Shown in pieces: positions 3,961 through 11,998 of a stretch of 64,000 bases of DNA. The position numbers and the translations under genes were made by a program. Source of the DNA: an uncultured delta proteobacterium (lineage in GTDB: Bacteria > Myxococcota_A > Polyangia > Polyangiales > Polyangiaceae); assembly GCA_963716725.1 (NCBI GenBank), contig CAVQUB010000011.1, positions 1 through 64,000 of the forward strand, read 5' to 3'. Under the pieces are notes generated by a model. It saw only the letters and a program-made list of their open reading frames with translations. It made no database searches and was not told the origin of the DNA. Positions within the stretch are counted from its first letter, which is position 1. Every line of letters begins with the position of its first letter.

Positions 3961-3992
3961 TCGGAGCGGGAGAAGAGATTCGAACTCTCGAC
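3961..3992 (-). repeat. att repeat: 32-bp duplicate of the tRNA-Gly 3' end
   Basis: TCGGAGCGGGAGAAGAGATTCGAACTCTCGAC, identical to 9587-9618. Confidence 0.95.
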
Positions 3993-4538
3993 CTCACGCT
4001 TCCCTCGAGGGCAGCACGCCGAGTGAGCGCCTGCTTGGAGCAGCACCGCCGATGCTCCGCCCCCTCATCGAGCCACGCCTGCGCCTTCCGCTCGATAGCG
4101 GATTGGGATCCGAGCAGCGCGACGCGCTTGGTGATACCCGGAGAGGCACACCGCCTCTGCGCCGGCCTCGCGGCAAGCTCGCGCTCGTGGTAGGCTACGT
4201 CGGCGGCTACCGCCAGCTTCAAGTCATCGAGCTCCGCGAAGCGGCCTGAGTGGCTGACGTCCGACAGCAAGCTTGGCGACAGCTTCGACGCGCTCGAGGT
4301 CGCTCCGCGTGCCACCGGAATGGACACGTCCACGAACGGCGCGAGTGCAATCCCTCACCGTTTCGCATTTTGGGGGCACCATCGGCATCGCTTTGCCTCG
4401 ATTGGCGCTCTCGCGAGCTTCGAACACGCCCGGTTTTTCCGAGGGAAGGGTCGCTGAACCGGCACACCGGTCCTCGCAAACAGCCACTTTCTCCCGAGGA
4501 AAGGCCGATGAACCGGGACAGGCCTGCCTCGTTGCCCC

Positions 4539-4985
4539 TCACTCTCGATGGCGCAGGATCGGTTCCTCGTAGTCCAGCGTGCCCACTTCAGCCTCGCCCC
4601 GCACGTAATCCTGCACGTCACTCAGAGACACGGTGATGGGTATGTCCACCGCAAGCAAGCCATGCTCGCTCAGAAACTCAACGCCGCACCCCATCGACTC
4701 CAGGTGCTCGGCAACGCGACGCACAGCGTTCTTGTCGAAGAAGACTAAGCGGACAAGCGAGTGGCTCGACCGCTTTGCGACACATTGAAACCAGAGGTTC
4801 CCCTCCATCACCCGCACGCGCACCGTGTCACCGATCGTCGCGAACGGAGCGAAGAACGGCACGTTGTCCAGAACGTACTCGTTCGCCTCGCCCGTCGGCG
4901 CACCCCATACCGTCTCGACGGCAACGGGCGGGTATCCGTCGTCGTCCTGCTCGAGCTGGAAGTGAATCCGAACTGACTCGCCCAC
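4539..4985 (-). CDS. DUF4265-family protein (putative toxin immunity protein)
   Basis: ETVWG...LDNVPFFA...GDTV...S.HSLVR...LAVDIP pattern; GTG start overlaps the HNH-tip stop (TAGTG). Confidence 0.75.
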   Translation of the reverse strand: MGESVRIHFQLEQDDDGYPPVAVETVWGAPTGEANEYVLDNVPFFAPFATIGDTVRVRVMEGNLWFQCVAKRSSHSLVRLVFFDKNAVRRVAEHLESMGCGVEFLSEHGLLAVDIPITVSLSDVQDYVRGEAEVGTLDYEEPILRHRE

Positions 4986-5042
4986 TACTTCGCACCCTTC
5001 TTGAGGTTGCAGTCGCGACACAATACCTGACCGTTGGGTGGC
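4985..5042 (-). pseudogene. C-terminal remnant of an HNH nuclease
   Basis: PPNGQVLCRDCNLKKGAK-stop matches the N..LC..CN..K end of HNH domains. Confidence 0.7.
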
Positions 5043-5307
5043 AACCTGCCCCTGCGACGGGCTCCGCCGGAAAGCTCACCTCCGGCACCGGTCCGAGATC
5101 GACGCGCGTCCACGCGCCGGGTTCGCCGATGTAGACGTGCACGGCCCATTGGTTCGCGTCGTCTGGTGCTTGAGGCTTCTTCGACGGGGAGCCCCCGTCG
5201 TCGCCCGAGCACGACGCGGCAAGTGAGAACAGGACAACGAGCGCCAAGAGGCTGCGCAAGGCCAGCGTCGGACGTGCGTTTGGCTTCAGGGACACGTTGC
5301 GTTCCAC
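5043..5307 (-). pseudogene. N-terminal fragment of a lipoprotein, joined out of frame to the HNH tip
   Basis: GGAGG RBS and GTG at 5307; signal peptide LLALVVLFSLAASC-SGDDGG. Confidence 0.6.
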
Positions 5308-6134
5308 GGTACCTCCTCGAGAATGGCGTTGACGGCGGGAGCGTTGGGATCGGTCGTCAGAATCAACACCTCCGGCATGCCTTCCGACCAGACAGCGCAT
5401 TGTGTGGGGGCTGCAGCCACACAAAAACCTTTGTCCCCGCCGCCGACGACCCAGTTCATGAGATGCACGGACCACGGCTTCGGTACCGTCACCCGAAGAC
5501 CCACCCACGGCTTGAGGCTCACTAGGCCCTGCGTGAGTCCGACCCCGAATGCCAACCCGGTCCCCGGACACAACGCTGCGCACTTCGGATCGAACCCGGG
5601 CTTCGATGGCGTGCGGATCACGACCGGCCAGAGCGGTGACGCGACCCCGTGTTCCGTGTAGCCACACGTTGCCTTTGCACAGTTCGCACTCGGCCCGCCG
5701 CAGCTCGTCGAGCAGTCGATGATCGGCGTGTCAGTTGGACACGGGTCGTCCTTCCACTGCGTCCCCCCTCCGCTGCCGCCGGTGCCCGCGTCGCCCGCGC
5801 CGCCACCGCTGCCGCCGCCGCTTCCCGCGCTGCCGTCACCGCCCGCGTCGCCCCCGGTGCCGCCACCGCCTCCGCCAGCGCCGCCGGCACCACCGCTGCT
5901 ACCGCAATCGCACGCGCTCCACGTCCCGTCGGCGCCGCAGCTCTGCGCGCCGTTGCACGCACCAGGACCGAGACACGCGCGGGTCGCACCCTGCTTGCAG
6001 GCGCTTGCGCTGGGCTCGCCCCCGTCGTCGCCGGAGCATGCGGCGATGACGAACGAAGCCACAGACGCTGCGAGCGCGGCACGCGCAGCCGGAGCCAGGC
6101 GCGCGATGGACCTCACGGACACGATGCGGGCCAT
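5286..6134 (-). CDS. Cys-rich lipoprotein with Gly-rich linker (paralog 2)
   Basis: Lipobox IAAC; C-QGATR-CLGPGAC-GAQSC module; paralogous to the adjacent gene. Confidence 0.85.
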   Translation of the reverse strand: MARIVSVRSIARLAPAARAALAASVASFVIAACSGDDGGEPSASACKQGATRACLGPGACNGAQSCGADGTWSACDCGSSGGAGGAGGGGGGTGGDAGGDGSAGSGGGSGGGAGDAGTGGSGGGTQWKDDPCPTDTPIIDCSTSCGGPSANCAKATCGYTEHGVASPLWPVVIRTPSKPGFDPKCAALCPGTGLAFGVGLTQGLVSLKPWVGLRVTVPKPWSVHLMNWVVGGGDKGFCVAAAPTQCAVWSEGMPEVLILTTDPNAPAVNAILEEVPWNATCP

Positions 6135-6940
6135 GGAACCTCCTCGATGACGGCATTCACTGCGGGAGCGTTGGGATCGTTGGTCAACACGTAGACATCG
6201 AATGCGCTACTAGTGACGGTTGAACACTGGGCTTCGGCACCCTTCAGACAGTAGTGGTTAGGGTCGAGATACTTTTCGACGCGCACGAACCACGGCTTCG
6301 GTACGGTCACCTTCATTCCGAAGCCCGTACTGATCTGCAGATTCCAGCCCAAACCGATCCCATACGTTGTGCTGGAAGCGCCGCACTGCTTGACGCACGC
6401 CGGATCAGTGCCGGGATTGGACGGCGTTCGGATCACGTACGGGAAGTTCGGCTTGCTGGTTGGGCTGTAGAAAGAGTGCGCACACGTCGCCTGCGCGCAG
6501 TTCGCACTCGGCCCGCCGCAGCTCGTTGAGCAGTCGATGATCGGTGTCTTGGTCGGACACGGATCGTCTTGCCACTGCGTCCCGCCGCCGCTTCCTCCGC
6601 TGCCCGCGTCGCCCGCGTCGCCGGCGCCACCGCCGCTTCCCGCGCTGCCGTCGCTGCCCGCCGTGCCGCCGGTGCCGCTCCCCGCGCCGCCACCGATGCC
6701 GCCCGCGCCGCCAGCTCCGCCGCTGCCACCGCAGTCGCACGCGCTCCACGTCCCGTCGGCGCCGCAGCTCTGCGCACCGCTGCACGCACCCGGACCGAGA
6801 CACGTGCGAGTCGCACCTTGCGAGCACTTGCCGCCGGTGCCTTCGCCGTCATCGGAGCCACACGCGCTCGCGACCAGCGCGCCCAGGGACAAGACCAAGG
6901 ACACCCGAACCGCACGCCAACCGACTGTGAACGACTTCAT
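6113..6940 (-). CDS. Cys-rich lipoprotein with Gly-rich linker (paralog 1)
   Basis: Start MKSFTVG, lipobox ASAC, same Cys module and EEVPW..CP end. Confidence 0.85.
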   Translation of the reverse strand: MKSFTVGWRAVRVSLVLSLGALVASACGSDDGEGTGGKCSQGATRTCLGPGACSGAQSCGADGTWSACDCGGSGGAGGAGGIGGGAGSGTGGTAGSDGSAGSGGGAGDAGDAGSGGSGGGTQWQDDPCPTKTPIIDCSTSCGGPSANCAQATCAHSFYSPTSKPNFPYVIRTPSNPGTDPACVKQCGASSTTYGIGLGWNLQISTGFGMKVTVPKPWFVRVEKYLDPNHYCLKGAEAQCSTVTSSAFDVYVLTNDPNAPAVNAVIEEVPWPASCP

Positions 6941-7250: not shown

Positions 7251-8303
7251 GTGAGCGAAACCCACCTCGAATCCGTCCTGCGGCAGCGGGGCTTTCGCCC
7301 AGGTCCAGGCGGTGTCGACTTCAGCAACGACTCCGGCGTCGTCATCGAGGCGAAGAGCGCGGTCGGCGGCGTGCGCGACCTCCAGGCAGCGGTCATGCAG
7401 CTCGCCGACGCTGCGAGCGAGCCAGGTGTCCGTGAGGGCTGGCTCTTGCTCGCTGGCCACCGAATGCCCGAGTCGATCAGCGACGCGTGGAAGAACGCGG
7501 TCAGGCTCTTGCGACCCGAGCTGGCCAAGAAGCTCAAGCTGATCGCCGTGAGCGGCAAGGTCATCACCGCGATCCCCGACAAGCCGGAGCTTCTCGAGCT
7601 CGGTCGCCGGATCGGTGACCTGCGGCAGGACGACCGGCCGTCGAAGCCGTACGACGCATTCTTCGACGTGCTGCACGTGTTGCTGGTCCGCTGGCTGCTG
7701 AACCAGGGCGCCATTCAGATGCGCAATCTCGGTGCAACGACCGGCTTGTCGCAACCCACGGTCCGCGCCGCCCTCCACCGCCTCGGGCCCGATCTCCAGA
7801 GGGACTCTCGGCGACGCGTGGAGCTGACCTCGTTCCCGCGCCGCGCTTGGCAGGAGATGGTCGCGCTGGCCCCGCGGATCCGCCAGCCGCGCTACTTCCA
7901 GGACACCTCCGGTCGGCCACGGCGCCCGGAGGAGCTGCTCGAGCGCGTGCGACGCCAAAAGCCGCCCGGCGTGGCGGTGGGCGGCGTGCTCGCCGCGCGG
8001 CGCTGGGACGCGGAATTGGACCTGGAGGGCGTGCCCAGGCTGGACCTCTGCGTGCACGCGCCGAACAAGACGCCCTCGCTCTCGTTCATGCGGAAGCTGG
8101 ATCCGGCGTTGGCACCCACCGATGGGCGGTCCTCGGTCTCCGTGGCCGTCCACTGCATCCGGCGCCGCGAGCCCCTCTATTTCGACGCAGAGGAGAAGAT
8201 CCCCTGGGCGGATCCCGTCGAAACGCTGCTCGACCTGGAGGAGCTGCGCCTCCACGTCCAAGCCGATGAGTTGGTCCGGCGTCTGCAGAAGAGGGCGCGA
8301 TGA
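7251..8303 (+). CDS. AbiEi-like type IV TA antitoxin / HTH protein
   Basis: HTH-like LGATTGLSQPTVRAAL, VAVGGVLAA and ADPVETLLDL..R..A C-terminus; ATGA-coupled to an NTase gene. Confidence 0.6.
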   Translation: MSETHLESVLRQRGFRPGPGGVDFSNDSGVVIEAKSAVGGVRDLQAAVMQLADAASEPGVREGWLLLAGHRMPESISDAWKNAVRLLRPELAKKLKLIAVSGKVITAIPDKPELLELGRRIGDLRQDDRPSKPYDAFFDVLHVLLVRWLLNQGAIQMRNLGATTGLSQPTVRAALHRLGPDLQRDSRRRVELTSFPRRAWQEMVALAPRIRQPRYFQDTSGRPRRPEELLERVRRQKPPGVAVGGVLAARRWDAELDLEGVPRLDLCVHAPNKTPSLSFMRKLDPALAPTDGRSSVSVAVHCIRRREPLYFDAEEKIPWADPVETLLDLEELRLHVQADELVRRLQKRAR

Positions 8304-9019
8304 AGGAGGTGGATCACCGCGAGCTCTTCCAGCGCATTGCGCGCTGAGCTTCCCGCCGAGCTTCTCGATCACGTCTTCGTGACGGGTAGCCTGGCGGCGG
8401 CGTGTCACTTCGGAGACCAGCTCGCAGGTCAGGGCGTGAGGACGAAGGACGCCGATCTCGTCGTGCATCCGGCCCGTGATGTGAAGACGGCCGCGGAGAT
8501 CGCGAGGACGCTTCTGGCCCATGGCTGGCGTCCCAAGGACGACTGCTACCCCAGCGCCACGGCGGAGCCGGCGGACCACCTCAGGGCCATCCGTCTCTAC
8601 CCGCCGGAGCACTCCGACTACTTCGTTGAGCTCTCCTTTCCCACCCGACCTTGGGCGACGCGCGAATGACGACGCTGATCGGCGGCCGCGAGATCCTCCG
8701 CTCCGCCAAGGACCTCGGCCGCGTGCTGGCGCTGGCGTACCTCTCCGGCCCGGCCGAGACCGATGCCTGGGGTGCGCGCTGGCGGTTCGCGCTGGACACC
8801 TGCTTTCCCGACCGCTGGCGCGCACTGGCGCTCCGCGCCGGGGATGGCCTTCGCGAGTTGCTGGCGGACGCGAGCGCCTTCGAGGAGGCCTGGTTCACTT
8901 GCAGCACCGGCTTGCTCGTCCGACAGGGCCTGACGCAGGACCAGCTGCGCGCCACGGCAGACCGACTCCTGGTGGATTGCATCGAACCGCTCGCGGATTC
9001 GGCGGGCGATACCGCGTGA
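8300..9019 (+). pseudogene. AbiEii-like nucleotidyltransferase, frameshifted and internally deleted
   Basis: VTGSLAA...RTKDAD motif and KDLGRVLAL; frame breaks near 8345 and 8640-8665. Confidence 0.6.
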
Positions 9020-9073: not shown

Positions 9074-9520
9074 ATGCCTCACGTCCGCGAGCTGTTCCAG
9101 GTCCCCGAAACCATCGGGAAGCTCGACTACGTCCTTCAGCTCACATCCGGTATCGAGCACCCGGAGCAAACCGCGGGCCTGTACGTCGTCACTCCGAGGC
9201 TAGCGGATGCGTTCGATCGCGTACTGACACTCGTGGGTCGCGCGATCCTCGATGGGCGAAGCCAAGCGGCGTACCTGCACGGCAGCTTCGGCAGCGGCAA
9301 GAGCCACTTCATGGCCATGCTGAGCTTGATGCTCAGCGGGCAAGAAGCCGCCTGGCCCTCTGTGCCAACGATCGTGACGCGAGCGGTGTCGGGTCACGCG
9401 ACGCCGGAGATGCAGCGGCTCTACAGCAGCGTGGGCTCGGACGAGATGCGGGAGAACTTGGAGCGGGTCGTCTCAATCGCGGGACTGGTCCCGAAGAAGG
9501 ACGAGCCGCCCAAGCAGTGA
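9074..9520 (+). pseudogene. pglY: Chimera of BREX-2 PglY ATPase N-terminus and tyrosine integrase C-terminus
   Basis: ELFQVPE..DYVLQL..YVVT..AAYLHGSFGSGKSHFMA, then IVTRAVSGHATPEMQRLYS (GH...Y integrase box). Confidence 0.75.
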
Positions 9521-9586: not shown

Positions 9587-9590
9587 TCGG

Positions 9591-9662
9591 AGCGGGAGAA
9601 GAGATTCGAACTCTCGACGTCCACCTTGGCAAGGTGGCACTCTACCGCTGAGTTACTCCCGC
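9591..9662 (-). tRNA. tRNA-Gly (anticodon GCC), CCA not encoded
   Basis: Full cloverleaf: GCGGGAG/CTCCCGC acceptor stem, CCACC-TTGCCAA-GGTGG anticodon arm, TTCGAAT T-loop. Confidence 0.97.
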
Positions 9663-9790
9663 GGAAGGGCGTGTAACTACCGCTCGGGCCCGATGCTGTC
9701 AAGCTCCGGAACCTCTGGCTATTTTCGGGTGATTTCCGGGCTCGCCCCGCGACCACGCCCGCGACCCCGTACCCCAACGCCCGGGCCCCC

Positions 9791-9827
9791 GCGCGGCCCT
9801 CGCGCGGCCCTCGCGCGGCCCTCGCGC
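9791..9827. repeat. 11-bp tandem repeat (GCGCGGCCCTC) x3
   Basis: Visible between the rel stop and the tRNA. Confidence 0.85.
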
Positions 9828-9831
9828 TCCT

Positions 9832-11998
9832 CTAAACCCGCTGCACGTCCACCACGCCCGAGACCTTCGCCAGCGCCTTCATCACGTTCTTGAGCTGCGC
9901 GGTATCACCGATGTGAAAGGTGAAGATGTTGCACGCGCGCCCGTCGTCCTGTGCGCGGCAGTTGGCCTCGCTGATGTTGATCTTTTGCGCGCTGAAGGTC
10001 TGACTCACGTTGGCCAAGATGCCTGGCTTGTTGGTGGTCGTGACCTTGAGCTGCACCGGCCGGTTGATCTTGGCCTTGGTGTCCCACGAGACATCGATGC
10101 GCCGCTCGGGATCGGTATCGAAGGCCTTCGCGCACTCGCGCCGGTGAATGGTGACGCCTCGCCCGCGGGTGATGAACCCGATGATGACGTCGCCCGGCAG
10201 CGGGTTGCAGCACTTGGCGTAGCGCACCAGCACGTCGTCCACGCCGTTGACGCGGATGCCACCGGTGTCCTTGCCGGTGACCTTGCGGACCAGCTGTTCG
10301 ATCCGCCCCGTCTTGAGCTGGGACGGCGGCTCGGTGCTGCCCTCCGCCTGCTTGCCGCGCAGCGACTTGACGACGTCGTGGGTGTCCAGCTTGCCGTAGC
10401 CAATGGTGAGCAGCAGCTCTTCCCAGCTGCCGGTGCGGTGCGCCTCCCACAGGCGCCGCATCTCGTCGTCGTTCTTCTGCAGGCGAGCGAGGCTCATGCC
10501 GCCCTCGCGCATGGCGCTGTCGAGCAGCTCGCGCCCGAGATTGATGCTCTTCTCGCGCTGCTCGCTGCGCAGGTACGCCCGCACGCGGTTTCGGGCGCGG
10601 GTGGTCACCGTGAAGTCGAGCCAGTCCTTGCTGGGCTGCTGCTGGGGCGAGGTCATCACCTCGATCACGTCGCCGTTGCGCATCTTGTAGCGCAGCGGGA
10701 CGATCTGCCCGTTGACTCGGGCGCCCGAGCAGCGGTTGCCGACCTCGGTGTGGATCGCAGTACGCGAAATCGATGGGCGTCGAGCTGCGCGGGAACATGC
10801 GCACGTCGCCCTTGGGCGTGAACACGTAGATCTCGTCGGGGAACAGATCGATCTTCACGCTCTCGAGGAACTCGGCGGGATCCTTGAGGTGCCGCTGAAA
10901 TTCGGCGAGCTCGCGCAGCCAGCCGAACTTGGCCGCTGCGCTTGGATCCGACTCCGCCGGAGTTGCGCTCCTTGTACTTCCAGTGCGCGGCGATGCCGTG
11001 CTCGGCGACGCGGTCCATGTCGTGCGTGCGGATCTGGATCTCGATGCGCTGGCGCCCCGGCCCGATCACCGCGGTGTGCAGCGACTGGTACATGTTGGGC
11101 TTCGGCAGCGCGATGTAGTCCTTGAAGCGGCCGGGGATCGGCGTCCACTTGCGAGTGGATCACGCCGAGCACCGCGTAGCAGTCGGCCACGGACTCGACG
11201 CAGATGCGGAACGCGATGATGTCGTAGACCTGCTCGAAGTCGCTCTGCATCGACTTCATCTTGCGATGGATCGAGTAGAGGTGCTTCGCGCGGCCGCTGA
11301 CGTCGGCGCCGAAACCCGTGCTCCGCGAGGCGCGAGGCGATGGTGCGGCAGACGCCCTCGATGTAACGCTCGCGCTCCTTCTTGGTCTTGGAGAGCTTCT
11401 GCATCACCTCGCGGTAGCCCTCGGCGTCGAGGAACTGGAACGAGAGGTCTTCGAGCTCGCTCTTGAGGAGCTGGATGCCCAGGCGATTGGCCAGCGGCGC
11501 GTAGATCTCCATCGTCTCGCGGGCGATGCGCTCTTGCCCCTCGGCGCTCATGTGCTGGAGCGTGCGCATGTTGTCGAGGCGGTCGCAGAGCTTGACCAGC
11601 AGCACGCGGATGTCCTGCGCCATCGCCACCACCATCTTGCGGAAGTTCTCGGCCTGGCGGTCTTCTTTGCTGGTGAAGTTGATCTTGCCGAGCTTGGTGA
11701 CACCGTCGACGAGGTACGCGACCTCCTCCCCGAAATCGCGGGCGATGTCCTCACGGGTGGCGCCAGTGTCTTCGACCACGTCGTGCAGCAGGCCGGCGCA
11801 GACGCTGGCGGTGTCGAGGCGGAGCTCCGTGATGATCTCGGCGACGCTGGCGGGATGGATGAAGTACGGGTCGCCGCTCTTGCGCATCTGCTCGCGGTGC
11901 GCCCACTCCGAGTAGTGGTAGGCTTTCCGAATCAGATCGGTGTCCGCCGCGGGCTGATAGCCCTGCACTCTGGAGACGAGTTGTTGGACGTCGAGCAC
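9832..11998 (-). CDS. relA: Bifunctional (p)ppGpp synthetase/hydrolase Rel (RelA/SpoT), several frameshifts
   Basis: HD domain [30 protein letters not shown] and ACT segments split across frames. Confidence 0.92.

Follow-up and report, generated by a model that had tools for sequence, protein, structure and literature searches.

A probable remnant of a Tc-like toxin locus with a retained immunity-type gene on a putative tRNA-Gly island of an uncultured polyangial bacterium

Positions 4,539 to 6,940 of a 64,000-nucleotide (nt) stretch of DNA from an uncultured delta proteobacterium of family Polyangiaceae (assembly GCA_963716725.1, contig CAVQUB010000011.1, positions 1 to 64,000; the whole stretch is called the window below) carry five elements, all on the minus strand: two small lipoprotein genes, Lipo1 and Lipo2, a third lipoprotein start, the tip of an HNH nuclease domain and an intact gene of family DUF4265. 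This locus raises the question of whether the five elements are the remains of a single toxin locus and, if so, of which kind. The preferred answer, held at a probability of roughly 0.6, is that about 15 kb of a Tc-like locus disappeared, between codon 87 of a giant lipoprotein gene and the last 19 codons of an RHS toxin, and that the small lipoproteins and an orphan immunity gene remained. Lipo1, Lipo2 and DUF4265 are still intact, the toxin and the presumed delivery parts having been lost, and no toxin can be made here.

The third lipoprotein start and the genes upstream of it

The third frame starts at GTG 5307, with a second in-frame GTG at 5295, and opens with a signal peptide followed by LAASC-SGDDGG. 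Its 87 codons (5045 to 5307, minus strand, delimited by homology to the N-termini of giant proteins) contain the lipobox and about 54 mature residues. In a sister genome of the same genus (G125), Lipo, Lipo and a third gene also stand in a row, the third gene running there for about 160 residues. A search with this copy among 1.84 billion representative proteins retrieved 25 sequences at E ≤ 0.001, the query included; eight of these were 1,563-2,384 amino acids (aa) long and were matched at their N-termini. The 87 codons of the window aligned end to end with residues 1-88 of one homologue, P0042 (59 % identity, E 1e-23), and also matched residues 1-67 of the 2,115-aa P0048 (47 % identity, E 8e-17). 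Judging from these alignments, the third "lipoprotein" corresponds to the first 87 codons of a gene for a lipoprotein of ~2,100-2,400 aa and not to a small toxin. The giant family displayed a conserved C-terminus rather than a variable tip in 12 out of 12 aligned sequences (...YRLRIWD...EDVQLVLKYRYWSR), and none of the 13 scanned members carried a toxin domain or any other Pfam domain at E ≤ 0.001.

These properties bear directly on an earlier note on this DNA, in which the third lipoprotein was held to have carried the toxin C-terminus itself. According to PMC5562445, a SitA toxin is a lipoprotein whose C-terminal nuclease domain varies and whose gene stands next to sitI, and a SitA-like protein, composed of the third lipoprotein N-terminus and its own HNH C-terminus and deprived of its body by an internal deletion, would place a lipobox start and a toxin tip 260 nt apart on one strand, as found here. 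This explanation is nevertheless very improbable, given the size of the eight long homologues, their constant C-terminus and the lack of Pfam domains in the family; besides, the tip is out of frame with the stub, and HNH together with DUF4265 ends RHS proteins and not members of this lipoprotein family. The stub is not the N-terminus of an HNH toxin, and the locus is therefore not a SitA-like lipoprotein-delivered toxin. The earlier note had made its claim depend on full-length homologues ending in toxin domains, and the giants turned out to be toxin-free. Its broader designation, a SitAI-like or Rhs-like system with accessory lipoproteins, survived in part: the Rhs-like component and the small lipoproteins, which are conserved companions upstream of giants, were retained, and the SitA-like component was abandoned because the giant C-terminus is free of toxin.

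Further giant-gene fragments were encountered. One of them lies on contig C35 of this same genome (G000:C35:3757-4587, L074), covers residues 116-388, contains one internal TGA and has two flanking transposase genes. It was ruled out as the remainder of the giant gene of the window, being only about 41-45 % identical to the query giant; on account of this identity, of the residues covered and of the flanking insertion sequences (IS), it is regarded as another decayed giant copy. Sister genome G125 contains, at C144:~9674-10100 (L046), another Lipo end followed by the start of a giant gene, which breaks off about 35 residues past the lipobox Cys; a different Cys-rich lipoprotein comes next.

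Lipo1 (6113 to 6940, minus strand, 275 aa) and Lipo2 (5286 to 6134, minus strand, 282 aa) were both delimited as open reading frames (ORFs) and by their translations, Lipo2 also by BLASTP. The coupled operon of two paralogous Cys-rich lipoproteins described earlier is present: the two proteins share 56 % identity by BLASTP (E 5e-71) and 61 % in the genome search, and the Lipo2 ATG lies in a 22-nt overlap with the Lipo1 stop. The third start, found at GTG 5307 with the C-SGDDGG N-terminus exactly where the earlier note had placed it, overlaps the Lipo2 stop in the same manner. From tandem DNA repeats with an 827-nt period it is evident that the third start duplicates the geometry of the Lipo1/Lipo2 junction. 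Between 3900 and 7400 no sigma-70-like promoter was found (0.0 expected), and terminator-like sites remained at chance level (three against 2.3 expected).

As judged from their translations, Lipo1, Lipo2 and the third frame all display a signal peptide ending in a lipobox Cys (...LVASAC, ...VIAAC and ...LAASC, respectively) and are thus lipoproteins. Lipo1 and Lipo2 are built alike, a Gly-rich linker connecting a Cys-rich N-module to a C-terminal domain whose last residues are EEVPW..CP; that of Lipo1 is a Cys-containing beta-sandwich with the end EEVPWPASCP. The family search gave 35 matches at E ≤ 0.001, about 26 of them full-length (260-287 aa); the remaining ones had the Cys-rich N-module only, a module also present on FGE-sulfatase-domain proteins. 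The lipobox Cys and ten more Cys residues were invariant in 27 out of 27 aligned sequences, and no match to the family was obtained in Pfam, NCBIfam or PADLOC. The AlphaFold model of Lipo2 (mean pLDDT 72.9) displayed a confident beta-sandwich, the blocks of the C-domain lying mostly at 77-96; Foldseek searches of this model against the PDB returned nothing at E ≤ 0.001, the top hit being a CUB domain (E 0.056). The C-domain was found in two out of 301 sampled genomes of the class, namely this genome and G125.

The HNH tip, the DUF4265 gene and their junction with the stub

Of an HNH nuclease toxin domain, the tip preserves the 19 final codons and a TAG (4985 to 5044, minus strand, located by homology to RHS-HNH C-termini). 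It reads from 5044 to 4988, with the TAG at 4987-4985, and its translation ends in LPPNGQVLCRDCNLKKGAK directly before the stop. Over 18 aa it was 83 % identical to the C-terminal end of an RHS-HNH protein, and a continuous DNA alignment ran from the tip into DUF4265 (window 5036 to 4735 against locus L039, 67.5 % over 305 nt, E 7e-20), which makes it more than a chance motif; the HNH tip of the earlier note is thereby confirmed at both the protein and the DNA level. No Pfam match was obtained with the tip frame. Six of the 22 invariant columns of the HNH alignment are kept (N85, V88, C90, C93, N94 and K97), and C43 and C46 (the first Cys pair) as well as D70 and H71 (the catalytic D-H) are absent, so that the tip does not amount to a complete HNH domain (PF01844). 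Since the catalytic D-H is missing, no nuclease can be made from the window.

The DUF4265 gene (4539 to 4985, minus strand, 148 aa from GTG 4985), presumed to be an orphan immunity gene, is intact and matched profile positions 1-114 of 115 of PF14085 (E 4.2e-22; 78.7 bits, the cut-off being 27); PADLOC and NCBIfam gave no match. It occurs as a single copy in the assembly. Its start is most likely GTG 4985-4983, a position aligned with the ATG of homologues and overlapping the TAG by one base; the overlap with the HNH stop announced by the earlier note was thus retained, with the start corrected. Similar overlaps of toxin stop and immunity-type start were seen at loci L079 (TAA/ATG) and L039 (TGA/ATG).

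DUF4265 was matched in 21 out of 401 genomes of the phylum, this genome included. Close relatives were 49-59 % identical to the copy of the window, and all four of those with visible upstream sequence (L039, L079 (= L094), L081 and L095) were directly preceded by an HNH end with overlapping stop and start; L080, a close relative lacking upstream sequence, was left out of this count. The carriers are RHS proteins: L039 displayed a YD shell, and L079 a combination of FG-GAP, TcdB_toxin_midN, RHS (RHS_repeat, E 1.4e-21) and HNH. The Rhs-like origin attributed earlier to the HNH tip agrees with these four relatives. The window itself contains neither an RHS/YD shell nor a core-end motif. Among 21 other DUF4265 loci inspected, four followed an ORF ending in ...DHI.PKS.GG...C..CN..K. 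More distant homologues (31-35 % identity; L017, L019, L022 and L024) were located after secreted Cys-rich repeat proteins ending in ...CVPAGQCF and a stop, not after HNH, and thus represent another kind of association for this family.

Giant-gene DNA homology, as measured against the G125 copy, stops near 5060-5045, and homology to the HNH/DUF4265 loci starts near 5044-5036, which sets the junction at about 5045/5044. The HNH tip is out of frame with the giant stub and, the two frames being offset, the stub reads on as junk until 4828. A genome assembly of 35 contigs that is 84 % complete could harbor a chimera created at about 5045 by the metagenome assembler. Such an artifact is scarcely credible, as contigs from three out of four public runs, representing three studies, extend across position 5045 by more than 31 bases in both directions. 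One bridging contig was identical to the window and two originated from a variant with nine substitutions, and this variant makes an error common to all runs unlikely. The run evidence consists of contigs and thus indicates presence, not frequency. The junction is real and not an assembly artifact. In two wastewater runs (X5 and X8), the near-identical variant strain had lost 6 nt at 5128, within the stub, and 2 nt at 4913, within DUF4265, and some contigs of the same runs skipped 4651-4730 (80 nt of DUF4265). The runs containing this strain came from biofilter, wastewater and sediment.

Intact loci in relatives and the case for one ancestor

The full-length giant protein found matches in 14 out of 41 related genomes, among them all sampled members of the genus. 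Lipo1/2-like genes were located directly upstream of the intact giant gene at three out of four loci (G642:C119, G641:C58 and G663:C96), with two copies at G663:C96; at the fourth locus (G643:C29) the contig stops 842 nt upstream of the giant gene. Downstream, a TcdB_toxin_midN domain was encountered at a distance of 4-5 kb and on the same strand at seven out of seven giant or giant-like loci (G641, G642 and G643). Three of the downstream ORFs, of ~2,700 aa, were scanned: all three displayed FG-GAP and TcdB_toxin_midN, two displayed SpvB and two displayed RHS_repeat, with domain E-values of 1e-22 to 1e-29. By their domain content these ORFs qualify as TcB/TcC-type fusions (BC). Other RHS genes of this genome bearing TcdB_midN (C5 and C22) had no giant or Lipo gene upstream.

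The C-termini of the giant-linked BC proteins vary, one ending in PT-HINT and another in an MsddA-like deaminase (E 2.9e-23). The deaminase-ending gene (L087:2383-3923, G643:C28) is located in the syntenic tRNA-Gly island, and a 191-aa ORF begins 5 nt past its stop. A small ORF of 115-191 aa immediately followed BC in five out of five cases examined, two of them overlapping the stop as ATGA; these small ORFs gave no significant Pfam match. As far as gene order and variable ends can tell, giant-linked BC genes behave as polymorphic toxins. At two loci (L084 and L085; G643:C10 and G641:C89), a DnaG-type primase of ~1,050 aa, a tyrosine integrase and a ParE-like pair were noticed just downstream of the giant-linked BC gene.

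Taken together, these arrangements suggest that one or more small Cys-rich lipoproteins, a giant family-less lipoprotein and a TcB/TcC fusion constitute a conserved and apparently undescribed cluster type. No combination of Tc-toxin terms with Myxococcota, Sorangium or Polyangia was found in the literature, subscription journals and supplements lying outside this search.

From this order, the history of the window could be reconstructed as follows. The ancestor would have been a Tc(ABC)-toxin-like polymorphic toxin locus on an island at a tRNA-Gly gene, with one or two small Cys-rich lipoproteins followed by a giant lipoprotein of ~2,300 aa in the TcA position, a TcB/TcC fusion of ~2,700 aa and a small ORF. 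The fusion would have consisted of an RHS shell ending in a variable toxin, the small ORF being translationally coupled to it. A single deletion or a short series of deletions would then have removed about 15 kb, from giant codon 87 to a point 19 codons before the end of the HNH toxin domain, stub and tip presumably stemming from the same locus. DUF4265 may still be transcribed from the lipoprotein operon, and it keeps a AAGAAGGG stretch just upstream of its GTG. If functional, this orphan gene would confer immunity to the HNH toxins that neighbors with intact loci deliver.

Several observations argue for a single locus. Order and strand (Lipo, Lipo, stub, tip, immunity gene) match the remains expected from an internal deletion of ~15 kb. 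In addition, a parallel decay was found in the same genus at G125:C13, where Lipo, Lipo and a giant stub of ~160 aa are followed by a ParE-like pair and then by an RHS core-end remnant (EEDVEVGLQYFGKRYYAPL...IDPLGL) that contains an internal stop. Over its first 19 residues this remnant is identical to the last 19 visible residues of the G641 giant-linked BC, and it is followed by a toxin and then by an Imm33-like gene (PF24719, E 6e-38). The proposal of the earlier note that a toxin was deleted and its immunity kept is supported, insofar as a toxin-locus remnant with a retained immunity-type gene is concerned.

The competing explanation is that two unrelated loci were joined, a giant operon truncated by rearrangement in a mosaic island having come to abut an orphan HNH-tip/DUF4265 cassette. 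The source of the cassette would then be an orphan array or an ordinary RHS gene without a giant partner. Although this remains on the unlikely side, several observations speak for it: the closest cassette carrier is more like the RHS type that is not giant-linked, cassettes are found on several carrier types, another giant-gene fragment of this genome is IS-flanked, and the island is a patchwork, with a BrxC/PglY stub, a split nucleotidyltransferase-like gene and a Mu-type transposon nearby. A joining of loci would, however, require strand, order and position to coincide with what the intact loci predict, and G125 illustrates that a giant stub followed by a BC-derived toxin/immunity remnant does arise from one locus.

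The deletion from a single Tc-like locus has a number of further points against it. Giant, BC, HNH and DUF4265 were not found together in any genome or contig, the DUF4265 scans of genome and metagenome contigs having provided only three and two loci, respectively, with upstream sequences too short to show a giant. The L079 carrier is nearer to the shorter, non-giant-linked RHS type of this genome (G000:C5, E 1e-35) than to the G642 BC (E 2e-13), and distant HNH/DUF4265 cassettes were located on a DUF6531-RHS protein (1,570 aa), a 1,535-aa protein and a 430-aa ORF. At the 21 other DUF4265 loci mentioned above, four genes followed Cys-rich repeat proteins and 13 had no toxin recognizable by eye. 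That DUF4265 encodes the cognate immunity protein of the HNH toxin is deduced from gene linkage, and the frameshifted variant argues for relaxed or weak selection on the gene. With an assembly completeness of 84 %, an intact locus may also exist elsewhere in this genome.

The relation of the giant to TcA belongs to the same side of the balance. Typical TcA domains are VRP1, a neuraminidase-like domain, a TcB-binding domain and a pore-forming channel. Neither by single sequence nor by profile could a sequence relation between the giant protein and TcA be found in Pfam, NCBIfam or the PDB; in the PDB, both kinds of search gave nothing below E 0.3. For the C-terminal 888 aa, the ESM Atlas provided no usable match, and a model with a pLDDT of 66 displayed long helices followed by beta domains. 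Foldseek related this model weakly to TcdA1 chains (E 6.7e-5 to 1e-3, TM about 0.12), and the sole solid superposition was with a CBM4-like sandwich (Z 13.6, rmsd 2.8, 150 aligned residues).

A more far-reaching interpretation can be proposed only tentatively and is rather doubtful. The intact Polyangia-type parent loci could represent a new branch of Tc machines, in which the giant and the small beta-sandwich lipoproteins would replace TcA, and the B-C cocoon would contain antibacterial polymorphic toxins (HNH nuclease, MsddA-like deaminase) accompanied by immunity genes. Such machines would be used at the outer membrane against other bacteria, and the lineage of the window would have lost the weapon and kept the shield.

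Putative island setting and relation to known systems

The locus is located between a tRNA-Gly(GCC) gene (9589 to 9662, minus strand, ARAGORN) and a 35-nt copy of the 3' part of the tRNA (3961 to 3995, a direct repeat without assigned strand), which would form two att-like island boundaries. The copy is 97 % identical to 9587-9621, at a distance of 5.6 kb. A mobile-island setting, named in the earlier note for SitA toxins, is consistent with these boundaries; no integrase was found between the tRNA-Gly and its 35-nt repeat among the ORFs of the window scanned with Pfam. In sister genomes this site contains a Tc-like locus, together with several partial copies of tRNA-Gly. The syntenic relA/tRNA-Gly site of G643 is occupied, in the orientation seen in the window, by genes for a Cys-rich lipoprotein and a giant-like paralogue and by a BC gene, and this stretch runs up to a partial tRNA-Gly copy; the arrangement is a further point in favor of a single locus.

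Several neighboring features were also recorded. Positions 9074-9520 (plus strand) encode the N-terminal ~95 residues of a BrxC/PglY ATPase of the BREX type (E 1.2e-36 in PADLOC; E 2.1e-23 for PglY in NCBIfam); this gene is another island stub, since it is cut off just before the tRNA-Gly. At 7251-9019 (plus strand), a family-less ORF of 350 aa is followed by 8337-8669 and 8651-9019, which look like two parts of a single nucleotidyltransferase-type gene interrupted by a frameshift (AbiEii matched weakly, at E 0.0069). The contig start (174-3813, minus strand) harbors a Mu-type transposase (rve, Mu-transpos_C), an AAA_22/TniB-like ATPase and a GH25 lysozyme-like lipoprotein, the latter matching only positions 2-128 of a 180-position profile. 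A tandem 11-nt unit (GGCCC.CGCGC) was located at 9784-9827, between the tRNA-Gly and a relA/spoT-like gene, and was also called as three overlapping 22-nt copies with 11-nt spacing.

Four known systems are to be compared with this locus. Like the SitA/SitI(/SitB) system (PMC5562445), it occurs in a myxobacterium, has lipoprotein genes beside a nuclease/immunity pair and lies close to mobile DNA. It differs in that lipoprotein and nuclease are located on separate polypeptides and in that the lipoprotein family is giant, with a conserved C-terminus.

Resemblance to the Tc toxins of Photorhabdus, Yersinia and others (TcA, TcB, TcC) resides in the relatives, where a giant is followed by a SpvB/FG-GAP/TcdB_toxin_midN/RHS protein with a variable C-terminus, as a natural B-C fusion; natural B-C fusions are mentioned in passing in PMC7861908. 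For the Tc loci examined there, that source reports no immunity proteins and gives eukaryotes as targets. In contrast to Tc loci, the giant is a lipoprotein without detectable TcA domains and is preceded by small Cys-rich lipoproteins, the BC genes of the relatives are trailed by small coupled ORFs, and one BC bears a bacterial-type deaminase. The window, for its part, retains no A, B or C part, the SpvB/FG-GAP/TcdB region being present in relatives.

Rhs/YD toxins are similar in that the HNH domain of the relatives stands after a core end of the PxxxxDPxG type, that an immunity-type gene overlaps the toxin stop and that several carriers exist. They differ from the window, which keeps 19 toxin codons and no RHS core, and DUF4265 is named in a single paper of the searched literature, as an uncharacterized protein and not as an immunity family. 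Bacterial teneurin-like proteins (TLPs) of Myxococcota are defined in PMC13018210 by FN-plug, NHL and YD-shell. According to the same source, their YD-shell toxins vary in the C-terminal domain, are followed by an immunity gene and are targeted as lipoproteins, and in these respects they resemble the present system. They are unlike the proteins described here, which have SpvB, FG-GAP and TcdB_toxin_midN, the lipoprotein being encoded by a separate giant gene.

The remnant itself is a case of ordinary gene decay with a possible orphan immunity gene, and it points to an undescribed cluster type in relatives. With DUF4265 being the gene found behind one particular HNH toxin domain, this family acquires a first concrete clue to its function. 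Through the BC genes, with their bacterial-type deaminase and the ORFs coupled to them downstream, it would become testable whether the Tc architecture is used against bacteria.

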